Below, in pieces: positions 21,238 to 24,414 of a stretch of 64,000 bases of DNA. The stretch is taken from the IMG/VR virus record IMGVR_UViG_2875713109_000001. One strand, 5' to 3'. Under the pieces are notes generated by a model. It did not search any database, was not told where the DNA came from, and worked only from the letters and a program-made list of their open reading frames with translations. Numbering within the stretch: position 1 is the stretch's first letter; each line of letters begins with the position of its first letter. The position numbers and the translations under genes are program-made. The DNA comes from a virus (taxonomy: Duplodnaviria > Heunggongvirae > Uroviricota > Caudoviricetes).

Positions 21238-22135
21238 GCACTGGAAAAACATTACTATTTTTAAACTTTCTCGTGAGGCGGATCTGACCGACTTGGAAGA
21301 TAAAAAGAAAATGATCCTTTTCACGCCATGCGGTAGTCAGGATATGGCCAAGTTCGGTTTTGTATCTCCATTTGGTGATAATTCCGAAGTTATCGCTATG
21401 CATGGAAATGGTTTTATCCTTGTTGAAGCAAAGCGCGAAACAAAAATTCTTCCCCCGCCGGTTATCCAGCGAGCTATTCAAGAAAAAATTGAAAAACTCG
21501 AGCAAGAACAAGCGCGTAAACTGAAGAAAACAGAGAAGGACTCCCTGAAAGACGAAGTTCTGCATTCTCTTCTGCCACGGGCTTTTTCAAAGTTCTCTGT
21601 TATCCAGGCGATCTACGACGGTTCAACTAAACGTATCTATATCAATGCCAGCGCGCGGCAGGCAGAGGATATGCTCGCGCTTATGCGTAAATCTCTGGGT
21701 TCTCTTCCTGTTGTTCCCCTAAGTGTTGAAAATCCCATTGAATTAACGCTGACCGACTGGGTACGTGATGGTAGTGCTCCACAGGGATTTCAAATGGGGG
21801 ATGCGGCAGAACTTAAGGCAGTGCTTGAGGATGGCGGTATTGCCCGAGTGAAAAAGCAGGACTTGGGAAGTGATGAAATATCCACACACCTGGAAGCTGG
21901 CAAGCTCGTCACTAAGTTGGCACTCGACTGGCAGAACCGCATTAAATTTACACTGGACCATAACTTCAGCCTTACCAGCGTCAAATTTGCGGATGAATTG
22001 CTTGAGCAGAACGCTGATATTGATAGTGAAGATGTTGCGCAGCGACTGGACGCAGATTTCTTCCTGTTGACCAGTGAAATTTCGTGCCTGGTTGATGCTC
22101 TGGTAAATGCCCTTGGTGGAGAGGCTAAGCAGTGA
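21230..22135 (+). CDS. hrdC: RdgC-like recombination-associated protein
   Basis: Long collinear similarity to E. coli RdgC ([22 protein letters not shown]); start chosen at [16 protein letters not shown]. Confidence 0.8.
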
Positions 22136-24396
22136 AAGAGCTGTGCTATGGATCTGTTTGCAGTGGAATTGAAGCCGCGAGTATTGCCTGGGAACCGTTG
22201 GGTATGCGTCCGGCGTGGTTTGCTGAAATCGAGCCTTTTCCATCTGCCGTTCTTGCGCACCGCTGGCCCCATGTCGCCAACCTTGGCGACATGACAAAAC
22301 TTGCCAAAAAAGTCCTGGCTGGGGAAATCGAATCCCCTGATGTGCTCGTCGGGGGAACACCTTGTCAGGCATTCAGTATCGCTGGATTACGTGGTGGGCT
22401 TGATGATGAGCGTGGCGCGCTAACTTTAAAGTATGTGGAGCTTGCAAATGCAATTGACGACAAACGGGCTGAGTCATTTCTCAAACCAGCCGTTATCGTC
22501 TGGGAAAATGTCCCAGGAGTCTTGTCATCGGCAGATAACGCCTTCGGATGTTTCCTTGCCGGATTGGCTGGAGAAGATGCGCCATTTGAACCAGGTGATC
22601 GACCTGAATCAGGAAAAAGTAACGCGTTCTGGCGGTGGGATGGCAAAACCGGTTGCCATGCTCCAAAGTGGCCGCAGTGTGGTTGTATTTATGGACCGCA
22701 GCGAAAGGTGGCCTGGAGAATCCTTGATGCCCAATACTTCGGAGTGGCACAACGACGCCGACGCGTGTTTGTTGTCGCAAGTGCTCGAACAGACCTCGAT
22801 CCCGCAACGGTACTTTTTGAGTTCGAAGGCGTGCGCCGGGATATTGCGCCGAGCCGAAAAAAGAAGGAAATCGCTTCCGCCATTATTGCAAATGGCGCTG
22901 CAATCAGTGGCGAAAGCCTAAATCCATGCCTACATGCTGACATGCCACCCGGTATGAAATCGACGAAAGCCGTAAACGCTTTCAGGATGGCAGCATTTGG
23001 GGAATATATTGACGATGAAACCGCATCGACAGTAAAGGCAAGAGATTTTAAAGATGCCACTGACCTTGCCGTTTTTAGCAGCACAGGAGCAGCTTTTTGG
23101 TCAGAAGGGCATGGTACATTGCGGGCACGTGAGCAAGAAAGCCATGAGCATCTTGTTACATTGGCTTTTCCTGAGCGTATGAGCGGTACACAACATGCTG
23201 CAACTAAGAATACTTCACCATCTCTAATGGCTAAAAATCCAACAGCTGTTTGCTATGAAGTAAGAAACGCAGAAGTAGCTGTCCGCCGTCTTACCCCTGT
23301 CGAATGTGAAAGGCTGCAAGGTTTTCCTGATGGGCATACGTTGATCCCGACGGAAAAGCGTAAAAAAGTTAGTTCAGATGAACTGGCATATCTTCGCAAT
23401 CACTATCCAGATTTAAGCGAAGAAGAGGCCGTGATGCTTGCAGCTGACGGACCGCGTTACAAAGCGATCGGCAATAGTATGGCAATACCAGTAATGCGCT
23501 GGATTGGCGATCGGATTACTAAGGCCGTATGTCGGCAGAAAGAAGGAAGTGAAACAAAAGAGCGAAAAGTTAAACCAGCGGCAGAATTCGAACGGTCCAT
23601 ATTCAAATGGGCTGGTGGAAAATTTGGTGTTCTGGAACAAATCTTTCGCTATTTGCCAGAAGGGAAGCGCCTGATTGAACCTTTCGTTGGTGGCGGAGCT
23701 GTCTTCATGAATGCCGGATACCAGGAAAATCTGCTAAATGATGTGAATGCTGACCTGATTAACTTTTACAAGACTCTGCAACGCGAGGCGCATTCACTTA
23801 TCACTCTGGCACATCGTTTTTTCCTGGACTACAACACCCAGGAGGGATACTTGGCAGTACGGAATGCGTTTAACAAACAAGTCTATGATGATTTACATCG
23901 CGCAGCGGCGTTTTTGTTCCTGAACCGACATTGTTTTAACGGATTGACGCGTTACAACCAGGCCGGTGAGTTCAATGTCGGTTATGGGAAGTATAAAACT
24001 CCGTATTTCCCATTACAGGAGATGGAAGCCTTCCTCGGTGCGGAAGGGCGGTCTGAGTTTGTATGCGGTGATTTTGCAGCGGTGATTGAAGCTGCCGGAG
24101 AAGGAGATGTCATCTTTTGCGATCCGCCGTATGAACCGCTCCCCAATACAGAGGGGTTCACGAACTATTCCGGTCATGACTTTAAGTTTGAAGAGCAAAA
24201 ACGCCTGGTGTCTCTGTTGACGGATGCTCATCGTCGAGGTGCAAAGGTTCTCATTACTAACAGTGGCGCGCCAAACATCAGAGAGCTTTATCATGACAGT
24301 GGCTTCAGAGTGGAACCTCTTTTTGCCAGACGTTCTGTGTCTTGTAAGGGGGACACTCGAGGTGTAGCTCATGACGTTTTGGGTATATTGCTCTAA
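22132..24396 (+). CDS. dmt: bifunctional DNA methyltransferase Dmt (C5-cytosine-like N-domain plus Dam-like N6-adenine C-domain)
   Basis: 754 aa; N-terminal [12 protein letters not shown] and ENVPG motifs; C-terminal WAGGKFG and DPPY motifs with Dam-like blocks; GTG start overlapping hrdC stop. Confidence 0.85.
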
Positions 24397-24414
24397 TAAA
24401 TTAATTAGTGTAAT
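24387..24414. promoter_or_regulatory. overlapping divergent C1 operator-like sites at dmt stop
   Basis: attgctctaataaatta (16/17) on plus strand overlapping aaattaattagtgtaat (reverse orientation, 14/17). Confidence 0.5.

Follow-up and report, generated by a model that had tools for sequence, protein, structure and literature searches.

Bacteriophage P1 encodes Dmt (AAQ14041; AF234172 66412-68676, formerly the P1 dam gene), a 754-residue protein labeled in its GenBank record as a 'bifunctional DNA methyltransferase' that acts on N6 adenine in GATC and 'perhaps' on C5 cytosine. The GATC specificity of the P1 protein is attributed in PMC10695390 to Coulby and Sternberg 1988 and is also given in PMC12707154, which states further, citing Sternberg and Coulby 1990, that pac cleavage in Dam- hosts depends on the P1 methyltransferase. 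In a Dam+ host, dmt is non-essential (PMC10695390). At the dmt stop, the P1 record places a divalent operator for the C1 repressor, Obanab (former Op72ab), as a protein_bind feature that 'controls expression of ban'. Its halves Obana (+) and Obanb (-), the promoters P1ban and P2ban, and the operator Odmt are entered as well, as are a 'dicF-like region', tRNA-Asn, tRNA-Thr and, further on, tRNA-Ile and ban. Here, the homologous locus is described in a 64,000-nt stretch of viral DNA (IMG/VR record IMGVR_UViG_2875713109_000001), which is referred to in its full length as the window and from which all coordinates are taken (1-based).

Positions 22000-25300 of the window share 98.7% of their DNA sequence with AF234172 66280-69578, and identity to RCS47, another P1-like phage, is 99%. 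Because of this identity, the window is assigned to a P1-like phage-plasmid (Punavirus), and positions were converted with the relation window = P1 locus L001 + 17999. Both the bifunctional Dmt and the overlap of Op72ab and Pban with the dmt stop are already in the 2004 P1 annotation and are known biology. The locus is very probably explained as the dmt gene and the Pban/Op72ab control region of a P1-like phage-plasmid, with a Dmt that carries two methyltransferases and a tRNA/ban unit that is controlled by C1. To the knowledge of P1, the comparison makes minor additions: an operator variant at position 24403, a Gly/Trp difference at Dmt residue 74, an intein, and exchange of a target-recognition domain (TRD). 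The main item worth attention is a module that resembles transfer-messenger RNA (tmRNA), which lies outside the coordinates of dmt and its operators and inside the transcription unit that they control. The dmt gene and its parts are as follows.

22132-24396, plus strand: dmt, a C5-cytosine methyltransferase fused to an N6-adenine methyltransferase of the Dam type; 754 aa, GTG start
21230-22135, plus strand: hrdC, an RdgC-family gene (open reading frame, P1 annotation); its TGA stop and the GTG start of dmt share bases (GTGA)
22132-23526, plus strand: C5-methyltransferase part of Dmt, aa 1-465; collinear with M.HhaI and M.HaeIII and matched by Pfam
22777-23280, plus strand: TRD of Dmt, aa 216-383, between motifs VIII and IX
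23590-24384, plus strand: Dam-type (D12 class) part of Dmt, aa 487-751, with FVGGGAV and DPPY; matched by E. coli Dam and PF02086

Dmt from the window and its P1 counterpart have the same length of 754 residues, the same domains, the same TRD type and the same overlap of the GTG start with hrdC; 743 of the 754 residues are identical, with 11 substitutions. A first-pass annotation of this stretch had proposed that C5-type (PCQ, ENV) and Dam-type (DPPY) motifs reside in one polypeptide, and all of them are present in the 754-residue reading frame, in which both Pfam domains are matched. PF00145 (C5 methylase) begins at residue 8 and scores 125.6 bits against a cut-off of 22 (E=3.7e-36), whereas PF02086 (D12 N6-adenine methylase) covers aa 493-725 (E=1.7e-56). 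In the Dam-type part, FVGGGAV occupies aa 518-524 and the DPPY motif aa 664-667 (nt 24121-24132), and residues 487-751 align end to end with the E. coli Dam structures 2g1p and 4gbe (E=2.6e-57). E. coli Dam and T4 Dam (PDB 2g1p, 1yfj) are D12-class GATC methyltransferases, and the alignment with E. coli Dam includes the DPPY and FxGxG motifs. In contrast to these enzymes, the Dam module of Dmt follows a C5 methyltransferase, to whose C-terminal end it is joined.

The N-terminal part does not lack catalytic residues. Motif IV reads GGTPCQ, with PCQ at aa 77-79 (nt 22360-22368) and the catalytic Cys78, and is followed by motif VI (ENV, aa 125-127, nt 22504-22512), motif VIII (QRRRR, aa 207-211), motif IX (aa 385-400) and motif X (GNS, aa 447-449). 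These five motifs are collinear with those of M.HhaI in four aligned blocks. GGTPCQAFS pairs with FPCQAFS of M.HhaI, which places Cys78 on HhaI Cys81; ENV pairs with ENV, QRRRRVFVV with QKRERIYMI, motif IX with RKLHPRECARVMGYPD, and the motif X stretch with YKQFGNSVVINV. The canonical order IV-VI-VIII-TRD-IX-X of M.HhaI and M.HaeIII is therefore kept, with the variable TRD between motifs VIII and IX, and PCQAFS is identical to that of M.HhaI. Relative to both enzymes, motif I of Dmt is atypical (SGIEAA), and its C5 half is considered a putative enzyme. The motif reads VCSGIEAAS, in which Glu and Ala take the place of the second and third Gly of FxGxGG, and it falls inside the Pfam alignment. 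Because the atypical motif (CSGIEAAS) is conserved in all Dmt relatives down to 56% identity, the deviation is read as a feature of the family and not as decay. A protein search with the N-terminal half of Dmt returned only near-identical P1-like proteins and no characterized enzyme. Some Dmt homologs (P0002, P0033, P0043) are named 'multidrug DMT transporter permease' at NCBI, a label that looks like an annotation error spread from the gene symbol dmt.

To follow the C5 half across related elements, 80 IMG/VR relatives of Dmt were compared. The C5 catalytic motifs are invariant among these relatives, even in those with only 56% identity. The TRD, which separates motif VIII from motif IX and spans 168 aa in the window, falls into at least six length classes (86, 89, 124, 168, 221 and 276 aa) between near-identical flanks, and sub-modules can be recognized that have been recombined among the unrelated classes. 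This variety suggests that cytosine target specificity is exchanged among P1-like phages. Modular target-recognition segments are also a property of the multispecific C5 methyltransferases of the Bacillus phages SPR and phi3T. In addition to the TRD exchange, an intein of 341 aa is inserted in frame between GGTP and CQAFS in 22 loci and in RCS47; the loci include L031-L036, L039, L040, L042, L059-L064, L067, L070, L074, L075, L078 and L080. It begins with CFTAGH, ends with VVHN immediately before the catalytic Cys, and contains LAGLIDADG-type motifs; for one intein-bearing protein (P0096), the Pfam families Hint_2 and LAGLIDADG_3 are recorded. The dmt gene of the window is an intein-free allele, in which the insertion point corresponds to 22365/22366. 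Inteins typically reside at the conserved active sites of needed proteins. Nothing relevant to an intein in dmt was found in the literature searched.

The most notable of the 11 substitutions relative to P1 Dmt is at residue 74 (nt 22351-22353), two residues before the PCQ loop, which is Gly in the window (LVGGTPCQ) and Trp in P1 (LVWGTPCQ). Gly is present in 78 of the 79 sequences scored, and Trp occurs in laboratory P1 only. A second sequenced laboratory P1 strain also has Trp74, together with a deletion, dmt-delta-MB. Independent lesions of the C5 half in both laboratory strains were considered and rejected: dmt-delta-MB maps to dmt nt 1821-2132 (aa ~607-711), inside the Dam half and including DPPY, which leaves only Trp74. 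Located beside the catalytic loop, this residue might impair C5 activity in laboratory P1. Since the laboratory phage has Trp74 and every natural relative examined has Gly, negative C5 results from laboratory P1 may not apply to wild P1-like phage-plasmids.

The dmt gene ends within a control region, and a further C1 operator lies upstream of hrdC. The elements of these regions, and the gene of the repressor, are listed below.

24387-24403, plus strand: Obana (Op72a), C1 operator, ATTGCTCTAATAAATTA, 16/17 to consensus; P1 annotation
24398-24414, minus strand: Obanb (Op72b), C1 operator, ATTACACTAATTAATTT, 14/17 to consensus; P1 annotation
24371-24402, plus strand: P2ban promoter (predicted), -35 ATGACG at 24371-24376 and -10 TAAATT at 24397-24402; transferred from P1, sequence identical
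24388-24416, plus strand: P1ban promoter, -35 TTGCTC at 24388-24393, 17-nt spacer, -10 TAATAT at 24411-24416; P1 annotation
24403, plus strand: T-to-A substitution in the 6-bp overlap of the operators, at Obana position 17 and Obanb position 12
20865-20881, plus strand: Odmt (former Op68), C1 operator, ATTGCTCTAATAAATAT, one mismatch to consensus; equals P1 Odmt, L001 2866-2882
52527-53375, minus strand: c1 repressor gene; tblastn with P1 C1 aligned 283/283 aa at 98.9% identity

The first-pass annotation had placed a pair of divergent operator-like sites across the dmt stop. The overlap is real, as the TAA stop (24394-24396) forms positions 8-10 of Obana and the last residues of Dmt, Ile-Leu-Leu, are encoded by operator bases. 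The two sites are inverted rather than divergent: their 3' ends overlap by 6 bp, and together they form an imperfect palindrome. Obana spans the last 2.3 dmt codons, the stop codon, the -35 element of P1ban and the -10 element of P2ban, and Obanb extends into the -10 element of P1ban. Bound repressor would therefore occlude both promoters. In the P1 annotation, the dmt stop follows the P2ban -35 element by 20 nt, and the P1ban -35 element lies inside the last dmt codons; P1ban matches the consensus weakly and for this reason is absent from a simple promoter scan. P1 Obanab has the same position at the dmt stop, the same 11-bp offset of the inverted 17-bp sites and identical promoter hexamers. 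Its two sites match the consensus at 17/17 and 15/17 positions, compared with 16/17 and 14/17 here, and the sole difference is the T-to-A substitution at 24403.

To score the operators, a position weight matrix was derived from the window's 13 remaining sites, which range from 20.3 to 26.0 bits. Obana scores 25.2 bits here and 26.8 in P1. Obanb scores 19.6 bits in P1 and 16.6 here, the latter value being lower than that of every other site, and its position 4 is not the G that all the others have. No sequence in IMG/VR matches the 24403 variant exactly, and one of 412 matching E. coli records carries it (plasmid NZ_AP027786.1). This rare change in the operator core should weaken both half-sites; somewhat weaker repression is predicted, which could be leakier than in P1.

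The operator pair has a restricted distribution. Among the 80 relatives, nearly all that are P1-like retain the 28-bp pair ATTGCTCTAATAAATTTATTAGTGTAAT at the end of dmt, over the stop codon, and it is conserved base for base in ~70 related contigs. In Dmt homologs at 56-85% identity (L038, L041, L045, L048, L058), the pair is absent and the stop codon is followed at once by a plain hairpin terminator. Because the overlap is kept in the former and absent from the latter, it is taken to be specific to the P1 lineage and stably maintained there. In 5426 complete E. coli genomes, the operator/promoter segment was found in 411, and 405 of the 414 places at which it occurs are on plasmids.

Downstream of the operators, the rightward unit contains the following features.

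24577-24603, plus strand: GC-rich hairpin (7-bp stem, UUCG loop) and a U7 tract; intrinsic-terminator-like, -12.8 kcal/mol
25070-25145, plus strand: tRNA-Asn (GTT); tRNA search
25148-25223, plus strand: tRNA-Thr (TGT); tRNA search
27028-27103, plus strand: tRNA with CAT anticodon (tRNA-Ile2 in P1), just upstream of ban
27384-28754, plus strand: ban, DnaB-type replicative helicase, distal gene of the C1/Op72-controlled unit

The proposal that repressor control of a tRNA/ban unit starts within the 3' end of dmt is supported by the P1 record, in which Obanab, P1ban and P2ban are annotated at the homologous positions. A strong terminator and the tRNA cluster had also been placed right after the operators. 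The hairpin and U-tract exist, but they lie 163 nt past the operators, inside the P1 'dicF-like' region and against the 5' end of the tmRNA-like module, and tRNA-Asn starts (25070) another 466 nt beyond them. The hairpin is conserved in D6, in which the upstream sequence differs. The 'dicF-like' region itself (24511-24612) was considered as a DicF homolog (RF00039) and rejected, as no match to the DicF model was obtained at E<=10 and the similarity to K-12 covers only ~26 nt, upstream of mature dicF.

On these features, the following sequence of events is proposed. dmt is the last gene of the uhr-hrdC-dmt operon, which has its own C1 operator; because Odmt lies upstream of this operon, dmt itself should also be controlled by C1. 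Its last codons (Ile-Leu-Leu-stop) double as the left half of the bivalent operator and as the -35 element of P1ban. In a lysogen, C1 is predicted to bind both overlapping inverted 17-bp sites, as annotated for Op72ab in P1, and would thereby occlude P1ban and P2ban and shut the rightward unit. Once C1 is inactivated, transcription would start at ~24423 and proceed through a leader, tRNA-Asn, tRNA-Thr, accessory genes, tRNA(CAT), ban and dbn. As P1 annotation has Obanab controlling ban, part of this transcription would have to read through the hairpin at 24577-24603 to reach the tRNAs and ban. On the protein side, the C-terminal Dam homolog would methylate GATC and, on the evidence of the P1 literature, be needed for pac cleavage and packaging if the host is without Dam. 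The N-terminal part is predicted to be a complete C5-cytosine methyltransferase with an exchangeable TRD. We infer that it most likely methylates a short cytosine-containing site and thereby protects phage DNA from restriction.

Several observations weigh against this account. Motif I of the C5 part is CSGIEAAS and not the canonical FxGxGG, the P1 record itself hedges C5 methylation with 'perhaps', and no paper that shows it was found. The substitution at 24403 lowers the scores of both half-sites, which makes Obanb, at 16.6 bits, the weakest site in the window. Finally, a canonical-looking intrinsic terminator stands between Pban and the tRNAs and ban, and a simple scan shows no consensus promoter downstream of it. 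The observations on the C5 part could mean that Dmt is in practice a Dam enzyme only, with an N-terminal half that is catalytically dead or serves in DNA binding or targeting. Besides the off-consensus motif I and the wording of the P1 record, this possibility would fit the published work, as no report of C5 methylation by P1 Dmt was found in the literature searched and the functional data found cover GATC methylation only; it would also fit the Trp at residue 74 of the sequenced laboratory phage, by the catalytic loop, where the 78 other sequences have Gly. The possibility is nevertheless considered unlikely. Cys78 in PCQ, ENV, QxRxR, motif IX and GNS are intact, collinear with M.HhaI and, as C5 motifs, invariant in relatives down to 56% identity. 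In addition, relatives have swapped the stretch that separates motif VIII from motif IX, as happens with the TRDs of active enzymes, and many alleles carry a Hint/LAGLIDADG intein exactly before the catalytic Cys. The swapped TRDs and the position of the intein argue for an active C5 enzyme under diversifying selection.

The weakness of Obanb raises the question of whether an AT-rich palindrome without regulatory role has arisen by chance where the gene ends, given that this half matches only 14/17 positions and is without G at position 4. Such a coincidence is hardly credible. When the window was searched with the asymmetric 17-bp C1 consensus ATTGCTCTAATAAATTT at three mismatches or fewer, 15 matches were found where 0.37 are expected, a count attained in 0 of 100 shuffles. 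The score of Obana equals those of the best other sites, the pair is conserved in the ~70 related contigs and the 411 E. coli genomes described above, the same element is annotated in P1 as a bivalent operator bound by C1, and c1 is present in the window. Together, the number of sites and their conservation effectively refute a chance origin. The hairpin poses a different problem. If it were an efficient terminator, Pban would give a leader of ~180 nt only, and expression of ban and the tRNAs would depend on further, unrecognized promoters that C1 control at the dmt stop does not reach. The hairpin is indeed canonical (7 bp, UUCG loop, -12.8 kcal/mol, U7) and conserved, D6 included. This arrangement is nonetheless judged distinctly improbable, as Obanab is annotated in P1 as controlling ban expression and a simple scan detected no consensus sigma-70 promoter between 24000 and 27200. 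In unrelated phages, a hairpin also directly precedes the tmRNA-like module, and the hairpin here may be a flank of that RNA and not a full stop. Classical bac/ban genetics, which map constitutive ban expression to Obanab, likewise speak against this arrangement. A C1-controlled unit that extends past the hairpin is the preferred reading.

Between the hairpin and tRNA-Asn, a conserved module with the features of a tmRNA coding domain is observed, which the first-pass annotation had not noted. In tmRNA (SsrA, above all its two-piece (permuted) form; RF04321 and RF01850), a reading frame without a start codon opens with GCA AAC GA and closes with a hydrophobic residue, Ala-Ala and a stop codon, as it does in the module. 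The tag of E. coli tmRNA is ANDENYALAA, compared with ANDDLMMVAA here, and the UAAAU before the resume codon and the pseudoknots directly after the frame are also shared. The elements of the module are listed here.

~24609-24783, plus strand: conserved tmRNA-like coding module; 5' segment GGGUUUUCG..UAGCGACUUUGCGG..UUUAGAAAC, tag frame, pseudoknots A and B
24665-24697, plus strand: tag frame ANDDLMMVAA*, GCA AAC GAT GAT CTG ATG ATG GTA GCG GCC TAA
24711-16/24728-33 and 24722-25/24743-46, plus strand: pseudoknot A, supported by covariation
24749-52/24762-65 and 24756-61/24778-83, plus strand: pseudoknot B, supported by covariation

The tag frame consists of 10 codons, has no start codon and is preceded by UAAAU. 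To compare tags, 184 copies with enough flanking sequence were collected, which form 57 clusters at 85% identity. Eighteen tag variants occur among the 184 copies (for example ANDDVVLMAA, ANEEMYLAVA, ANDEQFLAVA and ANDNTFLAVA), and all of them are exactly 10 codons long, with no insertions or deletions. Codon 10 is GCN, for which all four third bases are seen, and the stop is TAA or TAG. The fixed length of 10 codons, the absence of insertions and deletions, and the synonymous alleles at codon 10 indicate selection on the encoded peptide. In the 57-sequence alignment, the two H-type pseudoknots after the tag frame are paired in 92.6% of cells, and 15 of the 17 pairs have changed on both sides. 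Compensatory cells number 125, compared with 30.9 +/- 7 in shuffles (0 of 500 reach the observed value), and slid controls are 34-53% paired.

The similarity to tmRNA does not extend to the whole molecule. Unlike tmRNA, the module is without an acceptor stem that joins its 5' and 3' ends and without a G3-U70 pair, and its scores against covariance models are sub-threshold. A search of the P1-type module for tRNA-like closure of the ends, the G3-U70 alanine identity pair and a CCA end found none of them. The Rfam model tmRNA_permuted (RF04321) matches 24592-24697 with 24.1 bits (E=0.007 in a 676-nt search), below the gathering score of 47. Six other phages also give sub-threshold matches to tmRNA_permuted and beta_tmRNA, with RF04321 scores of 20-33.5 bits against the same gathering score. 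At default settings, ARAGORN reports no tmRNA at the module and calls one only with -ps80. That low-threshold call, a permuted tmRNA at 24474-24996, was rejected, since its CGGUAA/UUACCG acceptor has G3-C70 and its 5' part is not shared by the D6 or L051-type copies. A two-piece acceptor made of the hairpin at 24486-24504 and ACAAACC-A-CC, pairing with GGUUU at 24610, was rejected as well; a variant allele, in which ACAAACC is replaced by TCATGAC, has no compensating change at 24610-24617. A CGAAAAC-N-CCA acceptor piece was sought near any copy and gave only spurious matches inside hrdC. In Akira-type phages, a split 'tRNA-Gly with a 307-nt intron' around the tag (ARAGORN -i) is doubtful, as its 5' strand falls in a perfect TTGACA-17-TAGATT promoter. 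The module is thus a well-supported candidate for a conserved RNA with a tmRNA-like coding domain. A more tentative suggestion, which is possible and given somewhat less than even weight, is that the C1/Op72ab unit begins with an undescribed phage tmRNA-like RNA (~24609-24783) and not with the tRNAs.

The distribution of the module extends well beyond P1-like elements. A blastn search of GenBank phages with 24604-25069 returned 293 records from unrelated families. These include Ackermannviridae (PhiSH19, phiMAM1, phiEa2809), Gamaleyavirus (Bp4, ECBP1) and Akiravirus, the Drexlerviridae phage Cronobacter ESP2949-1 (87.8% identical over 24608-24697), the lambdoid phage HK633, in which the module is downstream of Q/PR'/qut, and many siphoviruses of Klebsiella and Salmonella. 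The family has members in P1-like, Ackermannviridae, Schitoviridae, Drexlerviridae, Akiravirus and lambdoid phages of enterobacteria. Almost all of the listed records have no annotation under the module; a few have a 'hypothetical protein' and none an RNA gene, and the module often adjoins tRNA genes. A degenerate 34-nt pattern was matched in at least 120 IMG/VR contigs and in only 4 of 185,579 species-representative bacterial genomes. No description of the module was found in the literature that could be searched, six tag peptides were not found there, and nothing relevant was found there on tmRNA in enterobacterial phages. Among phages, a tmRNA gene census of 2014 includes mycobacteriophages and Bacillus phage G only (PMC4131195). 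If functional, the module would give the phage, upon derepression of Pban, its own tagging of nascent chains on stalled ribosomes or a competitor of host trans-translation. If the module is real, it constitutes a widespread unrecognized phage RNA, with consequences for how ribosomes are rescued and proteins tagged in infected cells.

In three P1-like IMG/VR contigs (L051, L052, L023), ~1.3 kb is inserted at the position that corresponds to 24643/24644 of the window. A homolog of 24644-25014 follows the insert at 82% identity, with the tag frame intact and one hairpin deleted, and the 370-nt block (24644-25014) thus behaves as a unit. Many of the members outside P1-like phages have a separate downstream tRNA-like minihelix, UGUGGUG...T-arm...CACCACA, sometimes then NCCA, without G3-U70. 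In the window, a 15-nt direct repeat, CACAACAGGTAAGGG, at 24787-24801 and 25228-25242 opens two long 'spacer hairpins', one of which follows the tmRNA-like module and the other (25228-25311) tRNA-Thr. The second is followed by a comparable element:

~25309-25363, on the strand opposite the P1-annotated plp open reading frame: tRNA-like minihelix, TGTGATG ... CCAGAAGATAAGCATCTGG CTTCACA, homologous to the downstream module of other phages

As this minihelix occupies the strand opposite plp, the plp reading frame may be spurious. A stretch of the plp/upl region, 25802-25922 (+), which shares its strand with the ban unit, matches the Rfam model of STnc100, an sRNA of Salmonella, with 37.8 bits (E=5.6e-6), below the gathering score of 47. 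Farther along the unit, tciA-tciB-tciC of P1 are replaced at 25956-27000 by a membrane-like open reading frame of 78 aa and an SPFH-domain protein of 275 aa, as in MH422554-type P1-like phages (99.9% identical).

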